A DNA stretch of 64,000 nt, taken from NCBI GenBank assembly GCA_963663765.2, contig CAXXUA010000004.1:608001-672000 (forward strand), read 5' to 3'. Shown here in pieces: positions 1-58,333 of this stretch. The translations under genes and the position numbers were made by a program. The first letter of the stretch is position 1; each line of letters opens with the position of its first letter. This DNA is from Candidatus Poribacteria bacterium. Its GTDB lineage: Bacteria; Poribacteria; WGA-4E; WGA-3G. A model generated the notes under the pieces. The model was not told the DNA's origin. It saw nothing but the letters and a program-made list of their open reading frames with translations, and did not search any database.

Positions 1-2
1 AG

Positions 3-1232
3 CTGAGAAATGCATTGATGCACGAAACAGAAGAATCTTTACAGGAGCTTCGACAGCTCACTGAAACTGCTGGAATTGAAGTTGTTTGTGAGACAATTCA
101 ACCTCGCAATGTTCCGAATCCGACCTACTTTATAGGTGAAGGTAAAGTTGAAGAACTTAAGAACGTGGCAGCGGAATTGGAGGCGGATGCAATCATCTTT
201 GACGAGGAACTATCCCCTGCACAGACACGAAATATTGAAAACGTACTTGAAATTGCGACCGTTGATAGAACAGGGCTCATCCTACAGGTTTTTGCACAAC
301 GTGCATTGACCAGTGAAGCACGGTTACAAGTTACATTAGCACAGTTAGAATATGCTCTACCACGACTCACACGGATGTGGACACACCTTTCACGACTTGC
401 CACAAGCGGGGGTAGTGGAAGCGGGGCATTACGGGGTCCAGGTGAAACGCAACTTGAAATGGACCGTCGGTGGGTTCGTAGACAAATCGCTCAAGTCAAA
501 AAATCGTTAGAGACGGTAGAAAAGCGCAGACAACTTCAACGACAGAACAGAACCGAAAAAAACAAAGTGTCCCTTGTAGGCTATACCAACGCAGGGAAAT
601 CAACTCTATTCAATACGTTAACAGGTGAAAATGTCTTAGCGGAAGACAAACTTTTTGCTACTTTGGATTCAACAACGCGACGAGTGAGTCTACCAGATAA
701 TCAGAATATTCTGTTAAGTGATACCGTCGGTTTTATAAAAAAGTTACCACACCAACTGATAGCAGCCTTCAAAGCAACTTTGGAGGAAGTTACGCAAGCA
801 GACCTACTATTGCATGTCGTTGATATAAGCCATCCGGAAGCAGAAGCACAGATCGCTGCAGTAGATAAAGTCCTTGTAGAACTTGATGCCGCAGACATTC
901 CTATGGTAGTGGTATTCAATAAAATTGACCAGCTTGAAACGGAAGACCAATTCCATATCCAAAAAACACGTTATCCAAATGCGGTACCTATATCGGCACA
1001 GCGCGGTGACGGTATCTCAGAACTAATGGAGAAATTAGCGGATCATTTTGTTTCACACAGTGTCCTCCTAAATTTGAGTATCCCATATACAGATGGAAAA
1101 ACTTTAGATATGCTATATAAACACGGGACAGTGTTGGAGACAGAATATGTGGAGGCAGCAGTTCTCGTCAAAGCCCGTTTGCCAAGCCGTTATCTCAAAT
1201 CAGTGTCACAATTTGCTGTAAAGGATACATAA
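3..1232 (+). CDS. hflX: GTPase HflX (frame open to window edge, 5' end probably outside window)
   Basis: Motifs IGEGKVEE, LSPAQTRN, DRTGLILQVFAQRA, ARLQVTLAQLEY.LPRL, RGPGETQLE, G1 GYTNAGKST, DKLFATLD, G3 DTVGFI, G4 NKID. Confidence 0.97.
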   Translation: MRNALMHETEESLQELRQLTETAGIEVVCETIQPRNVPNPTYFIGEGKVEELKNVAAELEADAIIFDEELSPAQTRNIENVLEIATVDRTGLILQVFAQRALTSEARLQVTLAQLEYALPRLTRMWTHLSRLATSGGSGSGALRGPGETQLEMDRRWVRRQIAQVKKSLETVEKRRQLQRQNRTEKNKVSLVGYTNAGKSTLFNTLTGENVLAEDKLFATLDSTTRRVSLPDNQNILLSDTVGFIKKLPHQLIAAFKATLEEVTQADLLLHVVDISHPEAEAQIAAVDKVLVELDAADIPMVVVFNKIDQLETEDQFHIQKTRYPNAVPISAQRGDGISELMEKLADHFVSHSVLLNLSIPYTDGKTLDMLYKHGTVLETEYVEAAVLVKARLPSRYLKSVSQFAVKDT

Positions 1233-25720: not shown

Positions 25721-26463
25721 CTATGCAAGTGTGTAATTAATTCCATAATTTACCATAAATGAAGATTAGTTTATTAAATAGGTGATCATATAGTTCTCAC
25801 TCAGTAGGTGGGGAATGCCATACGCGCAGTCTTACCGATGATTTCTTGATTTGGTGCTTTGTATGCGCGCAGGTATGTCAAATCCCAATGGATATCTATT
25901 GGTGATCTATTGGAAATCCCAATAAACAGACTCCCAAAAAACTACAAAAACCATAAAAATCATATATAATATATACAAAAGAAAAGCACACAACAAAAAC
26001 ACTATGCAAAACTAACACCCAAACACAAAAAATATACAAACAAAAAACCGTACCAAAAAATGAAATTAATTTCTCTAAAAAACACAACAAAACCCCAATA
26101 AAGCCTTATAGATACTGGACGCACAACGACTTAACAAAACCGTACCGCAAACCGAGAAAACCGTACCTTTTGGTACGGTTTTGATAGTAGTAAATTATTA
26201 TGAATTCTCAAGAAAAACACAAACAATTGGCAGTGATTCCTCATAGAAAAAATAATAAAACAAGAAGCAACGACACCATATTAAAAAGCAGATATACAAG
26301 AAACTCACAAAAACCATTACGTTTTCGAAAAAACATGCTTTCAGGACTTACTACGACTAATTTAAAAGCCAATTTGCAAAACATCCACAGTATGTTATTT
26401 CATACCACGCGGTCTGTTTTGCACAATTCGGACTAACGACAAATTGAATGTAAAATTCTATTC

Positions 26464-41948: not shown

Positions 41949-42497
41949 TTATGTTTCTTGCACTTGAACTTCAGGATCTTCAATACTTGTTAACCTATAT
42001 CCTATTATAGCTCCGATAGGAATTGCTAATACATACAGTAATACAAGCGGTATACCGAGAATAGACCAAATACGGACAGGCAAAGACAACAGAAATGATA
42101 TTTTCTCTATCAAAGGAAGAATGATTTTTAGAAGAACGTTTGCGGGTAACTCTATATCCGACCAAGGAATATTTAGTAGTGCGACCAGTCCGACGATCGT
42201 AGGTGCTCCCAAAAATGCACCCGAACATACTGGTTTGAAAGGTATCTGATGCTTAAATTTTTGCCCAACAAACTGAATTCCTTTTGTCACACCGACTATT
42301 AAAATCCCATAAGAACAAGTAATTGAAATTAACAACAACAGACCAACCCAAAAACCGTGTGAAATCCTTTCATTAATTAGCAGTTGCCATAAGAATTTGT
42401 TAAATATAAGGAAATACACCAATCCTGCAGCAACAGCAATGACCACTCCCACAGCGATCTGAACAAGTGTCATTAGGACACTATTTCCTCGCGACAT
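41949..42497 (-). CDS. Hypothetical membrane protein
   Basis: Several hydrophobic helices; AGGAG RBS; minus-strand TTGACA-17-TATACT promoter at 42532-42560. Confidence 0.8.
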   Translation of the reverse strand: MSRGNSVLMTLVQIAVGVVIAVAAGLVYFLIFNKFLWQLLINERISHGFWVGLLLLISITCSYGILIVGVTKGIQFVGQKFKHQIPFKPVCSGAFLGAPTIVGLVALLNIPWSDIELPANVLLKIILPLIEKISFLLSLPVRIWSILGIPLVLLYVLAIPIGAIIGYRLTSIEDPEVQVQET

Positions 42498-42663
42498 TTC
42501 AACTCCTGTTAAACAAAATTCGTCTGTTTTAAGTATATCATGATGTCATATAATTGTCAAGATTTTAATATTGTTGATCAGGATTATTCAGTTTTAAGAA
42601 TTCTTTGTTGATGAATTTTACTTAATGTATACATCGTAGGTCGGGTAGAACGTGAGCGAAACC

Positions 42664-43783
42664 CATAGGTGTCAACTTAAGAAGAAAGTCAAGTGCTAAA
42701 TACCCCATCTCGGTAGGCGTGTTTTGTAAGTGCGCCGATAAACCCAGGATTGCCAACGGCGCGCTTACAAAGCACGCCTGCGGGGGAGTGCAGTTGAGGG
42801 GCGCGCTTACAAAGCACGCCTGCAGGGGAGTGCGGGTGAGTGCGGGGCGCGCTTACAAAGCACGCCTGCAAGGGAGTGCAGTTGAGGGGCGCGCTTACAA
42901 AGCACGCCTGCAGGGGAGCGCGGGTGAGTGCGGGGCGCGCTTACAAAGCACGCCTGCAGGGGAGGTGCGGGGTGAGTGCGGGGCGCGCTTACAAAGCACG
43001 CCTGCAGGGGAGGTGCGGGGTGAGTGCGGGGCGCGCTTACAAAGCACGCCTGCAGGGGAGTGCGGGGTGAGGTGCGGGGCGCGCTTACAAAGCACGCCTG
43101 CAGGGGAGTGCGGGGTGAGGTGCGGGGCGCGCTTACAAAGCACGCCTGCAGGGCAGTGCGGGTGAGTGCGGGGCGCGCTTACAAAGCACGCCTGCAAGGG
43201 AGTGCAATTGAGGGGCGCGCTTACAAAGCACGCCTGCAGGGGAGCGCGGGTGAGTGCGGGGCGCGCTTACAAAGCACGCCTGCAGGGGAGTGCGGGTGAG
43301 TGCGGGGCGCGCTTACAAAGCACGCCTGCAGGGGAGTGCGGGTGAGTGCGGGGCGCGCTTACAAAGCACGCCTGCAGGGGAGTGCGGGGTGAGTGCGGGG
43401 CGCGCTTACAAAGCACGCCTGCAGGGGAGGTGCGGGGTGAGTGCGGGGCGCGCTTACAAAGCACGCCTGCAGGGGAGGTGCGGGGTGAGTGCGGGGCGCG
43501 CTTACAAAGCACGCCTGCAGGGGAGCGCGGGTGAGTGCGGGGCGCGCTTACAAAGCACGCCTGCAGGGGAGCGCGGGTGAGTGCGGGGCGCGCTTACAAA
43601 GCACGCCTGCAGGGGAGTGCGGGTGAGTGCGGGGCGCGCTTACAAAGCACGCCTGCAGGGGAGTGCGGGTGAGTGCGGGTGAGTGCGGGGCGCGCTTACA
43701 AAGCACGCCTACCTTGAGTGAGAAAATCGTGATTACAAGGTTTCCCTCCTACAAGAATATGAATCGCTAAGTTGACACCTATG
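42664..43783. mobile_element. MITE family 5 (TIR CATAGGTGTCAACTTA) inserted in a REP stem
   Basis: 16-bp perfect TIRs; flanking 20-bp direct repeat GGTAGAACGTGAGCGAAACC (42644-42663, 43784-43803). Confidence 0.85.
42758..43712. repeat. Head-to-tail REP array, 21 units, mostly 42-48 bp
   Basis: Core GGCGCGCTTACAAAGCACGCCT + G-rich linker; inverted partner GTAGGCGTGTTTTGTAAGTGCGCC at 42713. Confidence 0.95.
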
Positions 43784-44035
43784 GGTAGAACGTGAGCGAA
43801 ACCCTACATTATAACCACAAACAATACATGTTAGGTTTTGCTCATGCTCTACCCCAACTATGCAATTAATTCACGAATACTAATAATATCTTCCAAAAAA
43901 CGAAAACAAAATAATCCTATAAAATTTATTTGCATGGTTTGCGAATTTTGTGATAGTATAATAAGCATGTCAACAAGGATTTTATGATTTGCGTTATACA
44001 TAGATGAAATACATAATATCCTATAGGAGAAAAAA

Positions 44036-47199: not shown

Positions 47200-50100
47200 T
47201 TGTATTACAGCAATGAATTATTTCAATTATACTACCGAACGACAAGGAATAGGTACGTGTTAGATTATTTGCGAAAAACTGAATACTACCAAGATTTTGT
47301 TGAATTCATTAGGTCCGGAGAAAAACCCCCATCAATCCGGGGGTTAAGGAACGCCTCTACATCCTATTTCATAACAACCCTAATTAGAGATTTTCCAAAT
47401 AAGTCCTTCCTTGTCGTATTCCCCTCACATCGTGAAGCGGAACGAGCATTAGAAGAGGTACGAGCGTTTCACACACACAACGATGAACTCAACAGTGGTA
47501 AAAATACAATTCCAGATGACATTTTACATCTCTTTCCAGCATGGCAAAACACCTTGTTTGATGGAATTTCTCCAACGACACACATATCTGTAGGACGCAT
47601 GCACACTTTACACAGTCTAATCACAAATAGCAGAAGACAGACCTGTTTAGATTCCGCAGAGTCTTCGTCCCAAGACGTAGTTTTTACAACTGTTCGTGCT
47701 TTGTCCTACAAACTCACCCCGTTTGATACTCTCTCTTCCGCATGTCGTACATACAAGATTGGGGATGAAGTAGAGTACGACGATTTTATAGGATTTCTGC
47801 TGCGAAGTGGTTATAGAGAGACTGAATTGGTTGAAGTAAAAGGAGAATTCGCACATAGGGGTGATATTATAGATATATATCCACTAATTGCAGATGCTCC
47901 TGTAAGACTTGACTTTTTTGGTGATGAGCTTGATGAAATACGTGTTTTCGACCCGACTTCGCAAGTATCAGCATCAAAGACGATCTCTATAGACATTACA
48001 CCGATGTCAGAGGTTTGTCTTGCGGACATCTCATTTTCTCATTGGAAATCACGAACCGAACGACTGATGAAAAAACCTGGAAATTCCGCAGATTTAATAA
48101 ATACTGTTAGAGAAATAACAGTACGTTTAGAAAACTATCTTGCAGAAGCACAGTCCGGTAGTCGGTTTACAAAAGATGAAATTGATGGAATTGAATTATT
48201 TCTACCGATGTTATATCCGCATCCTGAAATGCTAACTGATTATTTACCAGATGAAACGATTGTCATCAATGTCGAACCCCATTGGCAAAATCGGGAAGTA
48301 GTACAGATGCGCGAACAACTACAAGATATATTTGATCAGAAAATCACTGAAGGGAAGTTAATACCAACGTTGGATGACCTATTGGTTGCAGATGAGGTGT
48401 TACAGTTGAGATTGGATAATTTTACACATATCTCCGTTACATTAGCAGCACCAGCGATTGATCCTGATATTCCAAATAATCTGTCAAATGATACCCATGA
48501 TAATGAAACCTTTGAATGTCATTTTGACATCAAACCACTTGGTCTGGGTAAAGGTAATTATCAGATGGTTATTGATCATATCAATAAATGGACAATGAAA
48601 CAGTACCTTGTGAATGTTTTTTGCGAGACTCCCCAACAAGCAAAACGTGTATTAGAAATGTTAATAGAGCGCGATCTACCACCTGAATATATTTCAGTTT
48701 CTGCCGGTTTTATCTCTGAAGGATTTCTAAGCGAGTCATTAAAACTCGTGATTATCTCAGAAAACGAGATTTTTGGTAATCGTCAGCGGCGCGTAGTATC
48801 TCGAAAACGTTACAATAGTGGAGCACCAATCCTCAGTCTGATTGACATGAAGGTGGGTGATCATGTTGTCCACGTTTCACACGGTATTGCAATCTATGAA
48901 GGCATTCGTCGTATGGATATAGATGGACAAGCTCAGGATTTTCTTATTCTCAAGTATAAGGAAGATGATAGGCTTTATGTTCCAACCTATCAGGTTGATC
49001 TTGTGCAAAAGTATGTTGGTAACAAAGATGAGTCATACGAACCGAGGATCGACTATCTTGGTGGGAAATCATGGCAAAACAGAAAACGTCGAGCGAAAGC
49101 TGCTGTAGAAGAGATGGCTGAGGAATTGTTAGAATTATATGCATCACGTCAAGCGAACGAAGGTTTTAGTTTTCCAAAAGAGGTGCCTTGGGAAAGTGAA
49201 TTTGAAGCACTCTTTCCGTTCACTGAAACGGATGACCAACTTCAAGCGATTGAAGATGTGAAAACAGATATGGAAACGGACAAACCGATGGATCGTCTTG
49301 TCTGTGGCGATGTCGGTTATGGTAAAACAGAGGTTGCATTACGAGCTGCGTTCAAAGCGGTCATGACAGAAAAACAGGTCGCACTCCTCGTTCCAACAAC
49401 TATCCTGGCTTTGCAACATTATGATACTTTTGAAAAACGGTTCAAACAGTTTCCACTTAATGTTGAGATGTTAAACCGCTTCCGTAGTCAAAAAGAGATA
49501 AAATCTGTAAAAGAACGACTCGCTGATGGCACCGTAGATATTGTCATAGGTACTCACACACTGCTATCAGATACCGTTACATTTAACAATCTCGGCCTAT
49601 TGATTGTAGATGAAGAACACCGTTTTGGTGTAAAACATAAAGAGAAAATCAAGCAGTTTAAAGAAACAGTTGATGTATTAACGTTAACTGCTACACCAAT
49701 TCCACGTACATTACACATGTCGCTTGTTGGGATAAGAGATTTCAGCATTATCAACACACCCCCAGCAAATAGACTACCGATTCAGACTTATGTGATGCCG
49801 TATAATACCAAAGTCATCAAGGATGCAATCATTAAAGAGATGTCACGTGATGGTCAAGCCTTCTTCGTTCACAACCGTGTGCAGAATATTTCTATGATAG
49901 CGAAAACCATTCAAGAACTTGTTCCTAATGCGCGCGTAGCGATTGCTCACGGTCAGATGCCTGAACGAGAATTAGAAAACGTTATGTTAGAGTTTGTCCG
50001 CCATAAACATGATATTTTGGTCTGTACAATGATTATTGAATCGGGGTTAGACATTCCAAATGTCAATACCATCATGATAAACCGTGCAGATGCCTTCGGT

Positions 50101-50850
50101 TTAGCACAATTGTATCAACTTAGGGGTCGCGTGGGTCGTGCAGATGAACAAGCGTATGGTTATCTATTCTATCCACAAGACAAACCAATTACCGAACGTG
50201 CGCAGAAACGTTTAAGAGTAATTGAAGAATTTACTGATCTTGGATCAGGATTCAAAATTGCACTAAGAGATTTAGAAATTCGAGGAGCTGGAAATATCCT
50301 CGGTTCACAGCAGCATGGACACATTACAAATGTTGGGTACGAACTCTACTGCAAATTGTTAGATGATGCTGTCCGAAAGTTAAAAGGGGAAAAAGTTGAA
50401 GAAGAAATTGAAACAAATATCAATTTACCAATTGAGGCTTTTTTACCTGATGACTATATCCCTGATAGTCGTCAGAAAATATCTATATATAAGAAAATAT
50501 CAGCACTAAAAACAGAAAAAGAAAAACAAACACTTACCAATGAACTGAAAGACCGATATGGTGATATACCTGCCCCAGTTGAGATGCTTCTGGAAATTGC
50601 ATCTATTAAGCAGTTATGTCAAAAACTTGGAATCACTGCAATTGTTGCAGGGGGCAGTAGGATCAAAGTAACATTTGATGAACACAAACCACGTATTGAT
50701 GTGGCTCAATTTATTGAGACAATCCACCAAAATCCGCAGCTTGAATTACGTCCTCCAGCACAACTTCTGGTGAGTGTAGATACCCTAAAAGGCAAGATGC
50801 TATTAACTGAATTACAACGAATTCTATCGATTTTTGTTGTATCTGATTGA
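47200..50850 (+). CDS. mfd: Transcription-repair coupling factor (true start possibly GTG ~47257)
   Basis: [65 protein letters not shown]. Confidence 0.98.
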
Positions 50851-50909
50851 TTATTATTACGGTTTAGATATTACATCAAACCGCTACATAAAATAAGGAG
50901 AATTTCGAA

Positions 50910-51884
50910 GTGAAAAAAACATTTATAGTCGTTGTTGCAGTTTTTGTAAGCTGCCTTCTCACTTGGTCTCTTGTGCGTTCCGATAATCATGAACCTTCCG
51001 TAGATGAGTCTGAGAAGAGTGATATTATTATTGCAGAGATGAAGTGGAACGGAGAATTGCACCAGATATCTCTTGCAGAACTGGATGCTGCAATTGCTGA
51101 ATTACCAACCTACCGCCAGCGAAACTATGCGAGTAAAGCAGGGAAAGCAGAATACTTAGAAATCTATATAGATGAAAAGTTAAAAATACTGCAGGCAAAA
51201 GAAGCAGGTTTTGATAAATTGCTGGAACATTTGAAAAGATTGGAAGAATATACACATCAACTTATGATAGAAAGGCTCACCGAAATGGAAGTTGATGAGA
51301 AGGTCACGTATACCGAAAAAGATCTGATGGCATACTATGAAGGACACAAGCAAGATTATATAGAAGCTGCCCAAGTTCGTGCAACTTGTATTACACTTGA
51401 AGATGAAGACCTTGCTAATGCAACCTTAGACCAAATAACTGAAGGAAAAGACATTGTAGAGTTAGCAAAAAAACTATCTGAGGAAGAAAAATTAGCCAAT
51501 GGGCCTGGCAGTGGTCAAGATGATCCGGGTAATACTTTCTTTTTCAACAAAAACGCATCTCCGACATGGTCGGAGTTCATAGATGCTGTATTTGAGATGG
51601 AAATTGGAGAAACAACAGAAACTGTCTTTGAAACCGATGTGCAAGAAACGACATATTATCTGATTTTCCGTAAAGAGGAAGCGAAGCCTGAACGACAGAA
51701 AGAATTTGAAGAAGCTAAATCTGATGTTGAACGTAAAGTTAAACGTGCAACGAAACGAGCGCGTATACTTGAATGGATAGATGAAATTACAAAACAAGCG
51801 AAACTGAAAACTTATCCTGAGAATATTCCAATTCCTGTTCAGCCAGAGACTGCTGATGAAGATGCCGGGAATCCAGATAAATAA
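50910..51884 (+). CDS. PpiC/PrsA-type foldase (parvulin PPIase)
   Basis: Signal peptide, SurA-N-like helices, QVRATCI, GKDIVELAKKLS, EFIDAVFEMEIGE. Confidence 0.8.
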   Translation: MKKTFIVVVAVFVSCLLTWSLVRSDNHEPSVDESEKSDIIIAEMKWNGELHQISLAELDAAIAELPTYRQRNYASKAGKAEYLEIYIDEKLKILQAKEAGFDKLLEHLKRLEEYTHQLMIERLTEMEVDEKVTYTEKDLMAYYEGHKQDYIEAAQVRATCITLEDEDLANATLDQITEGKDIVELAKKLSEEEKLANGPGSGQDDPGNTFFFNKNASPTWSEFIDAVFEMEIGETTETVFETDVQETTYYLIFRKEEAKPERQKEFEEAKSDVERKVKRATKRARILEWIDEITKQAKLKTYPENIPIPVQPETADEDAGNPDK

Positions 51885-51918
51885 CGTTACACTTTATACT
51901 ACTTAGGAGGTTAACTCA

Positions 51919-52893
51919 ATGTTGAAATATAGTATTATTCCAATCTTATTATTATTTGCGATACTCGCTACGCTGCCTTTCATATCAAGTTGTGCTGATA
52001 AGGCTATCAGTGCTGAAGGGACAGTCATTGCTGAATTTGAATGGGATGGAAAACAACGAATCACACTTGAAGAGATGATGCAAGAAATAAGCGAACTTCC
52101 AGACTATAAACAGCGACTGTATCAAGACCAGAAAGGTCTTGAAGAATACATGACGTTGATGGCTGAAAGTCGTTTGATTCTTTGTCTTGCAAAAGACATG
52201 AAACTGAATGAAGATCCCGAAATACTGAAAAAAGTTCAAGATTACCTTCTGGACTTGATGGTTGATAGGATTACAGAACAGGAAGTTGATGCGAAATTAA
52301 TTTTGACAGATAAAGACTATCTTGAATATTATGAAGCAAATAAAGCCGATTATATTCGTCCCGCACAAGTGAAACTGATGTGTATTACACTTCAGGACAA
52401 AGCGCGTGCAGATGAGGTATTTGCTGAGCTAAAAGCAGGTAAGGATATTGCTGTTGCAGCTCAAGAACTTTCTGATAGAGGAGAATTGATTGGACCAGGT
52501 GCAAATCCTGAATCACCTGGGGACACAGATTATATCAGTAGAAATTCATATCCTCCAGGAACAGAACCTTTTATGGATGCAGCTTTCAAAGCAGAAAGAG
52601 ATGTACTTCATCCATCAGTCGTTGAGGTAGAGGTGCAAGAAGAAAAATTCTATATGATGTTCATTAAAAAGGAAGCAAGAGACGAATATCAACGACCCTT
52701 TATCGAAGAAGCTGTCAGAAAAAGCGTAATTAGAAAGGCTGAACGCGAAAAACGTGATGCACTAATGACGGCATGGCTTTTACAACTGCGGGAACGCGCT
52801 GAAGTAAAAACCTTCATAGACCGTATTCCAGAGGACAAAGCACCAGAAGAAGAAGCTGTAACTCCTACGGAACAAACTATACCTGAGAAATAA
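51919..52893 (+). CDS. PpiC/PrsA-type foldase lipoprotein (paralogue)
   Basis: Lipobox ISSC; QVKLMCI, GKDIAVAAQELSD, PFMDAAF. Confidence 0.8.
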   Translation: MLKYSIIPILLLFAILATLPFISSCADKAISAEGTVIAEFEWDGKQRITLEEMMQEISELPDYKQRLYQDQKGLEEYMTLMAESRLILCLAKDMKLNEDPEILKKVQDYLLDLMVDRITEQEVDAKLILTDKDYLEYYEANKADYIRPAQVKLMCITLQDKARADEVFAELKAGKDIAVAAQELSDRGELIGPGANPESPGDTDYISRNSYPPGTEPFMDAAFKAERDVLHPSVVEVEVQEEKFYMMFIKKEARDEYQRPFIEEAVRKSVIRKAEREKRDALMTAWLLQLRERAEVKTFIDRIPEDKAPEEEAVTPTEQTIPEK

Positions 52894-52957
52894 ACGTTCA
52901 GTGTATAAAATGAATTCCCTTAGTAGAATCTAAGATTAATTGGACAAAGATTACTTG

Positions 52958-53015
52958 TAGGAGTGAACTCCAATTCCCGATGTTTCCTATGTCTTGATTC
53001 GGAGTATCACTCCTA
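52958..53015. repeat. REPIN of the RAYT-associated family inside a family-3-like MITE
   Basis: GTAGGAGTGAACTCCAATTCCCGA...TCGGAGTATCACTCCTAC; preceded by TAGTAGAATCTAAGATTAATTGGACA. Confidence 0.75.
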
Positions 53016-53079
53016 CATGCAAAGCGATAAAATAGTAAAATTCACTATTATTAGACATTTCTAAGAGTGGAGGTGCCAC

Positions 53080-54429
53080 ATGAAGCTTAAAACAGGAACA
53101 TTTCTTCTGCTAATTGCACTTGTTATCTGCAGCTTTGTAGTATCAAGTGATGCTCGGATTTTTGATAGAATTATCGCTTATGTGAACGATGAAGTCATCA
53201 CGAAACGCAAACTTGATTTGTTAGTAAAACAGCAAGCATTTGAACTTCAGCAGATTTATCGTTACAGTGAAAGTGAGGCACTTAATGAAGCAGAAAAGCA
53301 GCGTGGTGAACTTCTTGATAGACTCATTCGACAAATGTTACTCTTAGAAGCAGCATTGACTTTAAAGGTTCAGGTAACTGATGTTGATATTGAAGAACAG
53401 ATACAAAAGTCAAAATCGCAATATCAAATTTCGTCAGATGAAGAGTTTAAGAAATTGTTGAATCGTGATGGACTAACAATGATTGCTTTTCGTGAACTGA
53501 TAGAACGAAATCTGAAGACCGAAAAACTCGTGATGGGTCGAATCTTACCTCGATTACAAGTACGCGACAGTGATGTGCAGAAGTTTTTTGAAGAAAATAG
53601 AGACCAACTTCCAACTAAAGCTGATAGAGTTCATTTGCGTCAAATATTCATCGCTTACAAACCGAGTGATGCAGACAAGAAGGCTGCAAACGAGACAGTA
53701 AATCAAGCTATTGAAGAGATTCGCAGTGACATAACAAAATTTGAGGAGATCGCACAACGTATTTCCTCAGAACAAAATACTGGTTCACGAGTTGGTATGC
53801 TGATAGAGACTACACCAGCAGAAATACTTACATTACCAGATGCATTTCTTACCGTTCTTGCCAAACTCAAAGCGGGTGAAATCAGTGATTTGATTGAAAC
53901 AGTTGATGGGTTTCATGTGTTTTTGGTAGAAACTCGTACTGATGAAAAAGTTACCTTTAGACATCTAACTGTTCCGTTCAAATTTAGCGATCAAGCAAAG
54001 CAAATCGCTATTGATAAAGCAGCAGAGATTTACAAGAAACTGGATGATGGTATACCGTTTATTGATCTTGCTAAAGAAGTTTCCGATGATGAAAAAACTC
54101 GTGGGAAAGGTGGCGACCTTGGCACCCATATCCTCACAGAGTTAAATCCAAAAACTCGTGATGCTGTCAATAGTGTTGAAGAAGGTAAGTATAGTAATCC
54201 AATTGATACTGATACTGGTATTTTCATCTTCAAGGTTGCTGAACGCTTAACTCCAGAATTAACACCACAAGAAAAACAGCAAATAATCGGTATCCTACGT
54301 CAACAACTATTTGAAAAAGAGTGGACTTCATACACCGACTCACTCATGGAAAATGCATATATTAAAATTAAGTCTGATGCAACACCTACAGTCGCAACAC
54401 CTAAGTCAGATAACATCAAAACACCGTAG
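53080..54429 (+). CDS. surA: SurA-like chaperone (SurA N domain + two parvulin domains)
   Basis: DRIIAYVNDEVIT, VHLRQIFI, FEEIAQRIS, FIDLAKEVSDD...GGDLG. Confidence 0.85.
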   Translation: MKLKTGTFLLLIALVICSFVVSSDARIFDRIIAYVNDEVITKRKLDLLVKQQAFELQQIYRYSESEALNEAEKQRGELLDRLIRQMLLLEAALTLKVQVTDVDIEEQIQKSKSQYQISSDEEFKKLLNRDGLTMIAFRELIERNLKTEKLVMGRILPRLQVRDSDVQKFFEENRDQLPTKADRVHLRQIFIAYKPSDADKKAANETVNQAIEEIRSDITKFEEIAQRISSEQNTGSRVGMLIETTPAEILTLPDAFLTVLAKLKAGEISDLIETVDGFHVFLVETRTDEKVTFRHLTVPFKFSDQAKQIAIDKAAEIYKKLDDGIPFIDLAKEVSDDEKTRGKGGDLGTHILTELNPKTRDAVNSVEEGKYSNPIDTDTGIFIFKVAERLTPELTPQEKQQIIGILRQQLFEKEWTSYTDSLMENAYIKIKSDATPTVATPKSDNIKTP

Positions 54430-54535
54430 TTGAGTAAGAATTCTGTGCAAAAAAAACGAAGATAACCCTCCAATCTATAACATGACCCCCGCTGCAGCAA
54501 GTTTATTTACAAATTTAATTCCTATAGCCATTCAC

Positions 54536-57500
54536 ATGAAGAATTTACGAGGTGTCTGTAGGTATGCATGTTTACAACAACTTGCTGTAGTACTTACTTG
54601 CATATTTCTCGCTCTTATCCCGCTTCATGCACAAGAATCGGAACCAAACGAACCGATCCCTGCACCAGACACATCAGAAAATTCAAACGCAACTTCTGAT
54701 CAGAAAAAGACCGAACCACCAACAACAAAAAAATCGTCATTAAATCCTGAAACTATGACCCCAGAAACTGATACAGTAATCGGTGATGGTGACGAAGTGA
54801 TTTTACAGGATAATTTTGTACAGATACATGGGGATGCACTCATAAAGTATGATAATATTACTTTACGAGCAGACCACGTATGGGCAGATTTCAATGAAAA
54901 CCTGATGCGTGCATCTGGAAATGTCTACCTTAAAGTAGGGGAGGAGGAGACATATTCGGATGAGCTCGTGTTCAATCTTGAAACAAAGAAGGGAATTGCA
55001 CGAAATGGATTCACTTTCAGTGATCCATGGTACTTTGGTGGAAGTGAAGTCTTTAAAATAGAGGATAATAGATCTTATATTCGCAGTGGTACCCTTACAA
55101 CATGCTCCCTTAAGTATCCGCATTACCATTTCAGCGTGTCCCGAGTGATCGTCAAAATGAACCAAGAGATGATTGCAAAGAATATCGTTATGAAGATAGG
55201 CGGTGTCCCAATATTCTACTTCCCTGTGATTCGTCGTGATCTGCGTAAAGATAAAATAGCAAAGATAATTGTGCGGGTTGGAACGGATAGTTACCAAGGT
55301 CCAAATATTAGTATCATCCTTCCTGTTGCACGAGAGAAACGGTATGATGGTGCGTTATTATATGATAGGAGTGCACGTAGGGGACAAGGCTTCGGCACTG
55401 AAGGCAAATATAGGTTTAGTGATACACAATTTCAAGAAATTCATATTCCTATCCCACCAGATGCTACTCCTGCTCAGCGTACTAAATTGGAAGAGAAAGC
55501 AAAAGAGATATATGACAGGTTAGAAGGAAAATATGACCGGTTTTGGTTAAAACAAATATATCTGGAATATAAAATTTCCGATGATGATGCTGATAGAGCA
55601 AAGTCAGAAGCAGAAGAATTACTAAACCGGTTGAATGAAGAAGGTGCTGATTTTTCCCGAATTGCCCAGACTGATTCTGACCATGCTGAAACGCGTTACG
55701 ATGGTGGTGATATGGGTTTCCTTGCAAAGGGTGAGACTGATGAGGAGGGTAACCCAAAACTCCATCCAATCATAGAAGCAGCTGCGTTTGAACTTAAGGA
55801 AGGTGAATTGAGTGAGATACTAAAAACTGAAACTGCTTTCCACATTCTAAAGGCAGACCGTGTTATTGACATTTATGGTGAACGTGAGGTAAGACTTCTT
55901 CGTATTGATGTAGCGATTACCGCAAGTAATGAAACTCAACAAAACATTCGTGGAATTGCTAATACTATACATGTACGAGCTCTTGCTGGTGAAACTTTTG
56001 AAGAACTTGCTAATGAATTTCCTGAAGCTTCCTTATCTGAAATAAATGAAGGTAAAGGTTTACCCCTTAATGAGATGGAATCCGGTTGGCAGTTTTCTGT
56101 TAGAAGGATGACTCTACCTGGAGACATAACAGAACGACGTCCTGTTTTTTCTTCTAAGGGTGTTTATATCTTCCAGTTAATTAAAAAAGAGGAAACACCT
56201 ACCTTTGAAGAACTTGCTGAACAGTTTGAAGCGGAATGGGAAACATTTGAAGCAGAAGTGTTATCATCAACCAGTGATGAAAAAGAAAAAGATTCTTCTG
56301 ATGAAACCAAAGACGATTCTGGCGCAGATAATGCCACTAAGTCAGAAGAGAATAGTAGTAATGAGAGTGAATCGTTGACGAAACCAGCACCAACAGAGGA
56401 TATTCCTACAAAAGAGGAAAATGTTGAAGAGGGTGAGGAAGATATAGTAACGGATAAAGAAAATGTTGAGGTGGTTGGAGAAAACACAGAAGAAGAGGAA
56501 AAAATAAAAGTCTATAGAAAACACGGTTTCCGAGGACAATGGGAAGACCCAAGACAAGTTGCTTCAGAAGCAAATAATTTATACGCTGGCGAACACAGTC
56601 GAGTTCTTAATACTGATGATTCGTTTAGACTGATCAAAGTTGATAGGAAACGGAGCTATAACGGAGATTTATACCTCTACGGTTCAGATGAATATTCATT
56701 TAGTAGACAGGATGCATCCCGAATTGGAAGACGTTGGAATATGCGATTGGGACACAGACAATCCTTCTATACTCCATGGGACAGTCGCCAAGCAGGGAGA
56801 CGTCCAATTAGTTTCGTTGGAAGGACTGCATGGCGTGCAATTCACTATAAAGATGATTTGGGGTTACAGAATGAATCCTCATTAAATTCTTTTGGAATTT
56901 TGACATACGGCTCCGCATTATCCACCGCAAGCCATGAAGACGTTGACAAAGATGGTAATCTTACGTACTCAAAAGAAACAATTGGTGATATTTCAAGCAG
57001 GCTTGAAGTTCGTCATGTTCAAGATTTATCTGGACAGCCAAACACTGCCCTACAAAAACTACCCCAATTCACTTTGAATTTTTCACGCATGCGATTTAAC
57101 AGACTTCCTGTCTTCGAAACAATCAACAACGGGATGGTTGCAGTAGCAGATAAAATTAAAATTGATAAACCGATTTTATCGCTTCTTGCATTTCCTACCC
57201 TTGAAGACACCAGTTTTGATATGGATATTGAATTCGGAAACTTCTATAGGCAGACGTATCGTGGTAAACATGGGGAGGAGAATAACATTTTTCTTCAAAC
57301 CCTTAACTTAGGTTTTGACCTTCGTAAACAGGCAAGCATCTTTGTCACACCCATGCGGGAGATTAAGTTAAATGCAAATCTGAACACAAATGGGATTTGG
57401 CACGCAAAGGATCAAGACAATAATCGTAACATCATGCGCGGGATATATAGCATTCGCGCGCAAGCGACTAATACACTGTTTCGCATATATAATACAAGCT

Positions 57501-58333
57501 TTATACCAGTTGTTCGGAAGTTACGTCATGAAATGCAATCATCGCTAACATTTAGTTATCAACCCGCCATCGATAAGAATAACAATCTTTATCCTTTTGG
57601 ACCTAGTACCTATTTCTTTGAAAGAAAAAGGTTGACATACAATTTCAATACAAATATAGAAGTTAAGACGAGACGAAGCCAAAACGCCCACCGTATCTTC
57701 CATTTTGACACACGACTTACAGCAGATTTCACAGAATTTGAAGCATTATATAGACGTAAATATGAACCAATTGAAAGTGATTTCACAATTGTACCATTAC
57801 CAAGCCGAACGCTAAATATCACTGTCCGCCTCACGCATGACCCTAATCCACATCCAGAAGATGGGAAACAGTTCAAGATGGTTGGCGTGCGGACGAACGT
57901 TAGATACACACGTAGTGATTGGAATGTCAGTTTCGGAAACTCTTTCAGCAAACGACATACTTCCATTCAAGCCTCACGTTCTATGACAGCTAATGGTCGA
58001 TACAGTGTTAGCAAGGACCTTCAATTTGACTTTAGTCTAATATATTATCCAATTGAAAGACAATTTTACTCACAACGAATCAGTATGAACCGAAATTTGC
58101 ATGATTGGAATTTGCGCATATCATGGAGTAGGGTTGGAATCAAACGCGACCCACCGTTTGATAATGTACGTCAAGATTTTACATTCCAAGTTAACTTGAT
58201 CGGTGAACCAGCTGTATCTATGGGTGTTGGTTTTGACGCAACTACAGAAACTTGGGGTCTTCATACTTTACCTGCGGGTGTGCCATATAATGCGTTTGGT
58301 AGTGGCAATTCACTTGGTCGTTCCTTCTTCTAA
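54536..58333 (+). CDS. lptD: LptD-like outer-membrane protein with inserted parvulin PPIase domains
   Basis: OstA-type jellyroll (LRADHV..D, ASGNV, FNLETKKG), GTLTTCS, GGVPIFYFP, barrel strands, RNLHDW near the C-terminus; parvulin motifs within 55418-56656. Confidence 0.82.
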   Translation: MKNLRGVCRYACLQQLAVVLTCIFLALIPLHAQESEPNEPIPAPDTSENSNATSDQKKTEPPTTKKSSLNPETMTPETDTVIGDGDEVILQDNFVQIHGDALIKYDNITLRADHVWADFNENLMRASGNVYLKVGEEETYSDELVFNLETKKGIARNGFTFSDPWYFGGSEVFKIEDNRSYIRSGTLTTCSLKYPHYHFSVSRVIVKMNQEMIAKNIVMKIGGVPIFYFPVIRRDLRKDKIAKIIVRVGTDSYQGPNISIILPVAREKRYDGALLYDRSARRGQGFGTEGKYRFSDTQFQEIHIPIPPDATPAQRTKLEEKAKEIYDRLEGKYDRFWLKQIYLEYKISDDDADRAKSEAEELLNRLNEEGADFSRIAQTDSDHAETRYDGGDMGFLAKGETDEEGNPKLHPIIEAAAFELKEGELSEILKTETAFHILKADRVIDIYGEREVRLLRIDVAITASNETQQNIRGIANTIHVRALAGETFEELANEFPEASLSEINEGKGLPLNEMESGWQFSVRRMTLPGDITERRPVFSSKGVYIFQLIKKEETPTFEELAEQFEAEWETFEAEVLSSTSDEKEKDSSDETKDDSGADNATKSEENSSNESESLTKPAPTEDIPTKEENVEEGEEDIVTDKENVEVVGENTEEEEKIKVYRKHGFRGQWEDPRQVASEANNLYAGEHSRVLNTDDSFRLIKVDRKRSYNGDLYLYGSDEYSFSRQDASRIGRRWNMRLGHRQSFYTPWDSRQAGRRPISFVGRTAWRAIHYKDDLGLQNESSLNSFGILTYGSALSTASHEDVDKDGNLTYSKETIGDISSRLEVRHVQDLSGQPNTALQKLPQFTLNFSRMRFNRLPVFETINNGMVAVADKIKIDKPILSLLAFPTLEDTSFDMDIEFGNFYRQTYRGKHGEENNIFLQTLNLGFDLRKQASIFVTPMREIKLNANLNTNGIWHAKDQDNNRNIMRGIYSIRAQATNTLFRIYNTSFIPVVRKLRHEMQSSLTFSYQPAIDKNNNLYPFGPSTYFFERKRLTYNFNTNIEVKTRRSQNAHRIFHFDTRLTADFTEFEALYRRKYEPIESDFTIVPLPSRTLNITVRLTHDPNPHPEDGKQFKMVGVRTNVRYTRSDWNVSFGNSFSKRHTSIQASRSMTANGRYSVSKDLQFDFSLIYYPIERQFYSQRISMNRNLHDWNLRISWSRVGIKRDPPFDNVRQDFTFQVNLIGEPAVSMGVGFDATTETWGLHTLPAGVPYNAFGSGNSLGRSFF

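Follow-up and report, generated by a model that had tools for sequence, protein, structure and literature searches.

The stretch of DNA considered here, hereafter the window, comprises 64,000 nucleotides of a Candidatus Poribacteria genome (contig CAXXUA010000004.1, positions 608,001 to 672,000) and carries a gene for a protein that very probably is the outer-membrane translocon LptD, with parvulin-type peptidyl-prolyl isomerase (PPIase) domains built into its barrel. The gene occupies 54482-58333 of the window on the forward strand, as do all of the features described below unless stated otherwise, and encodes 1283 residues when counted from the first ATG. An earlier note on this DNA, made from the letters alone, had singled out positions 55418-56656 as about 410 residues of parvulin domains within an LptD-like barrel, and a single reading frame does span this segment as residues 313-725. 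The true start is probably M19 at 54536, because the MK... start found there fits both the consensus of the homologues, which opens MxK, and the signal peptide that follows; the first ATG adds an 18-residue leader ahead of it. The signal peptide runs to LHA/QE and is succeeded by a linker rich in proline, threonine and glutamate that extends to about residue 99.

Beyond this linker the chain is predicted to fold as an LptD. Residues ~100-253 (54779-55240) form an N-terminal beta-jellyroll, or beta-taco, within strands E5-E158 of an AlphaFold2 model that begins at residue 96 (model numbers are given for secondary structure throughout). It contains a conserved TTC motif whose cysteine, C208 (55103-55105), corresponds by alignment to C173 of Escherichia coli LptD. 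Residues 263-315 (55268-55426) supply barrel strands beta1-beta4 (E168-174, E178-188, E193-202, and E208-228), and after the insert residues 723-1239 (56648-58198) supply a further 22 modelled strands, beta5-beta26, for a predicted total of 26. The motifs quoted in the earlier note are all present, namely GVPIFYFP at residue 241, GFGTEGKYR at 303, GADFSRIA at 388, AGETFEEL at 502, TFEELAEQF at 574, YNGDLYLYG at 726, and RRWNMRLGH at 750. The model, which covers residues 96-1283, has a mean predicted local distance difference test score (pLDDT) of 76.8 and a predicted template modelling score (pTM) of 0.58, with confidence dropping only in an acidic linker, in two loops and over the final 22 residues. 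When it was compared with the PDB using Foldseek, LptD chains took ranks 1-24 (4q35_A, E 3.1e-19), and with VIA-align the E. coli LptD chain 9kn3_A gave Z 19.0 and a root-mean-square deviation (rmsd) of 6.1 over 617 aligned residues (model 1..1145 against chain 49..759), full LptD chains generally aligning at Z 16-20 over ~600 residues. The jellyroll (model 1-114) matches LptH (4uu4, Z 13.2, rmsd 2.5) and LptA (2r1a, Z 13.0, rmsd 1.9). The regions on either side of the insert therefore model together as a single LptD with jellyroll and barrel, which bears out the earlier claim of one LptD-type protein.

The same relationship is recovered from sequence. A phmmer search with the barrel alone (residues 720-1283) against 1.84 billion representatives returned 43 matches at E<=1e-3, and among the 20 of these that were scanned with Pfam, 14 carry LptD_2 (most of them also LptD and/or LptD_N) and six carry Rotamase, that is, they are fused. 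A profile was built from an alignment of 51 sequences, consisting of 34 close fused forms, six distant fused forms and 11 plain LptD_2 proteins, and it finds the solved LptD chains 7omm_A (E 1.9e-20), 8h1r_A (E 5.1e-17), and 5iva_A (E 6.1e-10). We hold the architecture, together with the identity of the protein as an LptD, with high confidence.

The borders of the insert are set by the same alignment. Where the fused protein has residues 316-722 (407 residues), all 11 plain LptD_2 proteins have 14-16 residues, and the length at this site is 313-506 residues in the 34 close and six distant fused forms; the preceding segments, 96-240 and 241-315, are collinear across all 51 sequences. In the AlphaFold2 model strand beta4 passes unbroken into the insert, up to residue 323, and is followed by a helix (330-347), while at the far end a helix (575-595), a linker, a strand, another helix and a final strand that merges into beta5 (714-738) come after the second nested domain. 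A separate model of residues 308-740 (pLDDT 77.1) repeats this secondary structure. Read along the chain, the insert begins with the N-terminal part of an outer parvulin (residues 316-347, 55427-55522), made up of a first strand prolonging beta4 (E208-228, unbroken) and helix 1 (H235-252). There follows nested domain 1 (residues 351-462, 55532-55867), which is SurA-P1-like and contains GGDMG and FHILK; it is recognised by Pfam (Rotamase, PF00639, at residues 365-459 in two stretches, E 8.2e-24) and by its similarity to PrsA (2jzv, E 6.3e-10). Nested domain 2 (residues 463-572, 55868-56197) is degenerate in sequence and was assigned by fold only. The outer parvulin then resumes with a long helix (residues 573-596, 56198-56269; H480-500 in the full model and H268-288 in the insert model), is interrupted by a hypervariable, acidic and disordered linker (residues 597-673, 56270-56500; pLDDT <50 in both models), and is completed by a C-terminal part (residues 674-722, 56501-56647; E583-589, H596-604, and E619-643) whose last strand is continuous with beta5.

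When the insert model was compared exhaustively with 48,161 PDB representatives, 20 chains reached Z>=8, and all of them are parvulin-type. The tandem of nested domains (insert model 45..265) aligns with the SurA-like PPIase 8hm3_B at Z 16.2, and in the full model the stretch 257..477 aligns with both domains of 8hm4_A at Z 17.1 (rmsd 3.5, 204 residues aligned). Single parvulins align almost completely across insert model 2..419, including P2 of SurA (4g2p_B, Z 10.9, rmsd 2.7, 104 of its 108 residues), E. coli Par10 (1jnt, Z 9.0, 90/92), and PrsA (1zk6, 87/91), and therefore the two ends of the insert together make up a third complete parvulin fold. As modelled, this outer parvulin contains the acidic linker and, between its first and second helix, encloses a SurA-P1/P2-like tandem. 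The third parvulin had previously been described as split by a long acidic linker, and this holds (597-673), with the refinement that this parvulin is the outermost of the three, with an opening strand and helix (316-347) that come ahead of domains 1 and 2.

The side of the membrane on which these domains lie was assigned by placing the barrel in register with that of E. coli. The actual E. coli K-12 LptD, taken from its genome record, was aligned with the fused protein and its relatives (identity 15%), and its P231 and P246 map to the two strands that directly follow the VPIFYFP strand. These gate prolines are placed on beta1 and beta2 of E. coli LptD in two papers (PMC6164715, Fig. 5 legend; bioRxiv 10.1101/2025.04.10.648201). 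Each stands opposite an alignment gap in the fused protein, which has one proline a column away in beta2. For two barrel-only crystal constructs, 4rhb_C (starting at residue 229) and 4n4r_C (starting at residue 226), the alignment opens at model 167-169, in the same strand. The register of the prolines and the barrel-only constructs together imply that the insert is flanked by four strands on its N-terminal side and 22 on its C-terminal side. The far end provides a further check, as the column of E. coli C725, a residue located in the beta24-beta25 periplasmic turn according to one of these sources (bioRxiv 10.1101/2025.04.10.648201), falls between strands 24 and 25 of the model. Because an even-to-odd connection shares its side with the N-terminal jellyroll, the insert is predicted, by this parity argument, to be periplasmic, lying in the beta4-beta5 turn, next to the beta-taco and at a distance of four strands from the lateral gate (beta1/beta26). 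The periplasmic turn proposed beforehand is thus retained. In another class of the phylum (P0129; loci L013 (G003) and L014 (G001)), LptD has a further parvulin with canonical-looking GGDLG and YHIIK motifs, which is closest to P2 of E. coli SurA (z 20.8). This extra domain enters the chain past the position of residues 895-898, in the beta10-beta11 periplasmic turn, at a place taken up by a helix in the present protein.

The nested tandem resembles part of the periplasmic chaperone SurA, and a SurA-like gene (SurA_N plus two parvulins, assigned by Pfam and NCBIfam) lies directly upstream at 53080-54429. The 51-sequence profile matches residues 168-363 of SurA 1m5y at E 9.3e-19, and the tandem is collinear with P1-P2 of the neighbouring gene (24% identity over 302 residues, E 2e-10). 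In Smith-Waterman comparisons domain 1 scores z 16.3 against P1 of this neighbour and z 9.9 against P1 of E. coli SurA. Domain 2 remains below z 3 against SurA domains and is recognisable by fold alone. The title of PDB entry 2pv1 describes SurA P1 crystallised with an aromatic-rich peptide; P1 is the peptide-binding domain. A conserved role in binding rather than catalysis, as for SurA P1, is by this analogy more likely for the insert, since its histidine pairs are incomplete and the SurA core is missing.

The fusion is a property of the whole phylum. A six-frame search found a match in 174 of 176 phylum genomes at E<=1e-20, as the earlier note had suggested checking; the two genomes without one are fragmented assemblies, 81% and 90% complete. 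A fused LptD was matched in every genome with a completeness of 90% or more and a contamination of 5% or less (133/133), in 30 of 31 genera, and in all 11 families. The listed open frames are mostly ~1240-1490 residues long and have no internal stop; a few are longer (up to 1778 residues) and three are cut short. A word-indexed protein search added 119 proteins of 1229-1382 residues, all with Rotamase domains. Of the distant fused forms, two (P0123 and P0152) bear the name Poribacteria in their source, and P0129 shares 68% identity with genomes of another class of the phylum, as does P0126 with those of another family; in this survey of four distant forms, every fused relative that was traced lies inside the phylum. 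In runs from three studies, Logan contigs span the two junctions, and one of these runs is labelled as a sponge metagenome. The contigs of two studies break only inside the low-complexity linker, the X1/X5 contig gap at 56063-56226 being assigned to the linker and not to a junction.

Identity to 33 close homologues is 0.80 for the jellyroll, 0.84 for beta1-4, 0.78, 0.66, 0.65, and 0.71 for the successive parvulin parts, and 0.75 for the barrel, compared with 0.20 for the acidic linker, which is absent in P0123, P0126, and P0129. Because the parvulin identities are near that of the barrel and that of the linker is far lower, the parvulin module is seen to be under purifying selection, and the linker to be a clade-specific, fast-evolving addition.

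The earlier note had also suggested looking for a second lptD and for lptE, lptA, and lpx genes. In a six-frame search of the 6.35 Mb genome, which is 97.8% complete, PF04453 has no match and PF19838 has one, the fused gene, so that no second lptD was found, although such six-frame negatives need caution in this genome since LptE was missed in the six-frame Pfam search and found by a protein scan. The LptE lipoprotein is encoded by an open frame (G000:C5:457985-458467; L023:1354-1986) that was located via a same-genus LptE-like lipoprotein, its 71% identical orthologue, and that reaches 30.2 bits for PF04390 (E 7.9e-7, cut-off 23) when scanned as protein; 86 of the 176 phylum genomes exceed the LptE cut-off, some of them with a fused LptD. 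The genome also carries LptF/G and LpxC, as well as an operon with an LpxL-like acyltransferase, LptC, LptA, and LptB. Given a sole LptD together with LptA, B, C, E, F, G, and LpxC, the fused gene is best read from sequence as the lipopolysaccharide (LPS) translocon LptD of a complete Lpt pathway, with a predicted export activity, and the suggestion that it might handle a substrate other than LPS finds no support. The LptA-like protein (347 residues; L002:1201-2244, contig C5) ends in a long C-terminal tail, acidic and of low complexity, that is reminiscent of the linker of the LptD insert.

Two further features set the fused family apart. In E. coli, LptD is held together by interdomain disulfides that join C31/C173 to C724/C725, a feature known for Proteobacteria. 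The column of C725 is occupied here by D1208 (58103-58105); 36 of 40 fused proteins have aspartate there, and all 11 plain LptD_2 proteins have cysteine. C208 is the only cysteine of the mature protein, and therefore an interdomain disulfide cannot form. In the P0129 lineage the insert coexists with a cysteine at this column, so the insertion came before the cysteine was lost. The second feature is a family-specific C-terminal tail rich in proline and aromatic residues (residues 1246-1283, 58217-58330). All five complete fused forms have a tail of 36-38 residues, whereas the 11 plain LptD_2 proteins have 8-16 residues each; its last residue is aromatic, and no other segment of the protein is as well conserved (identity 0.89 to the 33 close homologues). 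AlphaFold leaves the tail unstructured. It could be a ligand of the parvulin domains; a three-chain complex prediction of beta-taco, tail and insert returned "no answer" with a score of 0.00, which speaks neither for nor against a contact.

Assembly of LptD is known to depend on SurA in E. coli. We consider it reasonably probable that the overall best explanation of this locus is a sole LptD whose parvulin module is a tethered holdase in a periplasmic turn. The mostly non-catalytic parvulin domains would act at the periplasmic mouth as a SurA-P1-like, peptide-binding holdase, aiding in cis the folding and assembly of a very large barrel at the machinery for beta-barrel assembly (BAM), and they may also hold the Pro/aromatic C-terminal tail. 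The fused LptD would work with the normal set of LptB, C, A, F, and G plus the plug lipoprotein LptE. The cis-chaperone step taken by itself can only be put forward tentatively. It is conceivable, if rather unlikely, that Poribacteria have hard-wired the dependency of LptD on SurA, either with an array that binds LptD's own unfolded segments, including the tail, for self-chaperoning at BAM, or with a hub that couples the folding of proteins of the outer membrane (OMPs) with LPS insertion. That the sister class added a fourth, canonical-looking parvulin, in a second periplasmic turn, suggests that chaperone domains have been selected for on this barrel repeatedly.

Several points weigh against this reading. 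In the protein scan LptD_2 (PF19838), at residues 827-1037, reaches 21.3 bits with a cut-off of 22.5 and is thus sub-threshold, the fused lptD exceeding the cut-off (24.5 bits) in the six-frame genome search; the jellyroll is matched by LptD_N (PF03968) in neither the protein scan nor the genome search, and NCBIfam yields far sub-threshold PPIase matches and a weak CT351-family match only. The domain search proposed earlier therefore comes out strong for Rotamase, and it is the model that has the LptD fold. The full-length model, with its pTM of 0.58, gives no inter-domain placement of the module relative to the beta-taco or the lumen. The N/C core domain of SurA is the part that carries its chaperone activity. 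The fused protein has no match to a SurA_N family in Pfam at E<=0.1 where the neighbouring gene has three, and without this core the insert is to be called SurA-P1/P2-like, not SurA. We take the positions of the canonical parvulin active-site histidines from Pin1 and Par10, and the columns were set by our own motif alignment over 40 fused sequences, which calls for caution; on this basis both histidines occur together in no domain for most of the 40. The two columns hold Q (37/40) and H (35/40) in domain 1, R (36/40) and Q (34/40) in domain 2, and Y (23/40) or H (11/40) and R (34/40) in the outer domain, and even the catalytic-looking histidine of domain 1 is replaced in distant fused forms. 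Because no domain keeps both, prolyl isomerase activity of the insert is doubtful, and any function is suggested by homology alone. A free SurA-like chaperone is also encoded next door, which leaves no obvious need for a tethered one. RNA evidence consists of one 179-nt metatranscriptomic contig on 55200-55357, upstream of the insert and with one difference, which is too little for a claim of expression; the lack of RNA coverage elsewhere carries no weight. The idea of a built-in SurA-like chaperone, as first advanced, is consequently kept for the P1/P2-like tandem as an inference; the core and a complete histidine pair are lacking.

The same architecture might serve a different purpose. The module could be a structural brace that positions the beta-taco relative to the barrel and offsets the lost interdomain disulfide, with no chaperoning involved. 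In the model the beta4-beta5 turn adjoins the attachment of the beta-taco at beta1, and incomplete histidine pairs would suit a non-enzymatic role. In E. coli, LptY binds and stabilises the beta-taco, and so a separate lipoprotein plays such a part there. This precedent and the lost disulfide partner (aspartate in 36/40 fused proteins at the column where 11/11 plain ones have cysteine, and a single cysteine in the mature protein) are what suggest a brace. However, the lineage that has both the cysteine and the insert makes the insert older than the loss it would offset, three domains exceed what a brace needs, and the prediction gives no contacts; we regard this alternative as unlikely, if still deserving of attention. 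A role in trans, in which a SurA-P1-like docking or holdase platform would catch other unfolded OMPs or BAM and couple protein insertion with LPS insertion, draws on the closeness of domain 1 to the peptide-binding P1 of SurA (the z scores of 16.3 and 9.9 above) and on the three additional parvulin-type genes at the locus, but no partner is in evidence and the SurA core is absent, and we find it distinctly improbable. For both of these the tethered holdase in cis remains the reading we prefer.

The remaining alternatives concern the topology, the pathway, and the reality of the gene. If the VPIFYFP strand were beta1, a strand count off by one, as could arise from sequence, would place the insert in an extracellular loop where it would be exposed at the surface, for example in contact with a sponge host; the homologues come from Poribacteria, one of the matching runs being labelled as a sponge metagenome. 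This is already disfavoured, and now very improbable, as the barrel-only crystal constructs begin aligning after the VPIFYFP strand, the register of P231 and P246 holds, the C725 column lies in the beta24-beta25 turn, and the second parvulin of the sister class likewise occupies an even-to-odd turn, beta10-beta11. Replacement of LptE by the module, as plug or folding template, was suggested by the six-frame Pfam search, which found no LptE, and has been rejected for this genome, where the LptE lipoprotein is encoded (PF04390, 30.2 bits) and whose phylum has 86 of 176 genomes over the cut-off; we give it scarcely any credence. An error of assembly or gene calling that joined a PPIase gene and an lptD gene, for which the unusual architecture is the sole argument, can be dismissed with near certainty. 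The fusion recurs in 174/176 genomes, many of them with single-contig assemblies, the listed frames contain no stop, contigs from three studies span the junctions, and the insert is nested within the barrel sequence and not joined to it end to end.

LptD is essential, a drug target, and the hardest OMP to fold, and that of E. coli needs SurA, LptE, disulfide isomerases, and BAM. Compared with LptD of the LptDE translocons of E. coli, Shigella, Klebsiella, and Neisseria (9kn3, 4q35, 5iv9, 7omm), the fused protein shares the jellyroll, the 26-strand barrel, and the TTC cysteine, but has ~410 residues of folded domains where E. coli has a tight beta4-beta5 turn, an aspartate at the position of the C725 partner, alignment gaps opposite P231 and P246, and an extra conserved tail, at 15% identity. 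Its nearest barrel relatives are plain LptD_2 proteins (PF19838) such as those of candidate division TA06 (P0143 cluster), which match at E 1e-9 to 1e-3 with collinear flanks and differ in having 14-16 residues at the insert site, cysteine in the column of C725, and a shorter tail (8-16 residues). With SurA (E. coli 1m5y; the Bacteroides fragilis SurA-like PPIase 8hm3/8hm4) the insert has the parvulin tandem in common, and the locus the surA-lptD gene neighbourhood; unlike SurA, it has no N/C core, its tandem is nested in a third parvulin, and it is covalently part of an outer-membrane barrel. LptY (YedD) and LptM of E. coli are likewise accessory components on the periplasmic side, working on the beta-taco or at the lateral gate, but they are separate lipoproteins of unrelated folds, and a functional analogy with the insert is a conjecture. 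In the ushers of the chaperone-usher pathway the plug is a folded domain between two barrel strands, although its fold is different and it gates the lumen.

Whereas the LptD and parvulin folds are themselves known, the fusion of LptD with PPIase domains is new to the literature as far as found; in agreement with the earlier note, which knew of no equivalent, no description of an LptD with PPIase domains was found in the open-access full texts searched. Public homologues are labelled "peptidylprolyl isomerase," "hypothetical protein," or "parvulin-like peptidyl-prolyl isomerase," the named ones being Candidatus Poribacteria, and the ESM Atlas labels its own clusters of the fused family "PpiC domain-containing protein." The LptD nature of these proteins thus goes unrecognised in annotation, and with such labels automated surveys would score Poribacteria as being without LptD. 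A natural LptD that has three chaperone-type domains and a lost disulfide, and that extends across a phylum, offers a ready-made experiment on the roles of the periplasmic helpers, and it also bears on the amount of folded cargo that can pass through BAM within a turn of a beta-barrel. Overall the observation is solid and of interest for outer-membrane biogenesis.

The surroundings of the gene are rich in parvulins. Two Rotamase_2 parvulin-type genes of 324 residues each lie downstream of mfd at 50910-51884 and 51919-52893 (together 50910-52893), and they are followed by the SurA-like gene already mentioned, so that positions 47200-54429 hold mfd and then three parvulin-type genes in a row directly upstream of lptD, in what may be described as a parvulin-rich envelope-biogenesis locus. 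The surA-like gene stands directly upstream of the fused lptD here and in three of the five distant genomes checked, and lptD also adjoins surA in the E. coli K-12 genome record. Over the window as a whole the G+C content ranges from 0.41 to 0.49 up to position 26,000 and from 0.35 to 0.40 over 26001-64000, with a single 2-kb block at 0.52 (42001-44000), and the only Rfam match at gathering score within the window is a tRNA at 2141-2225 on the reverse strand.

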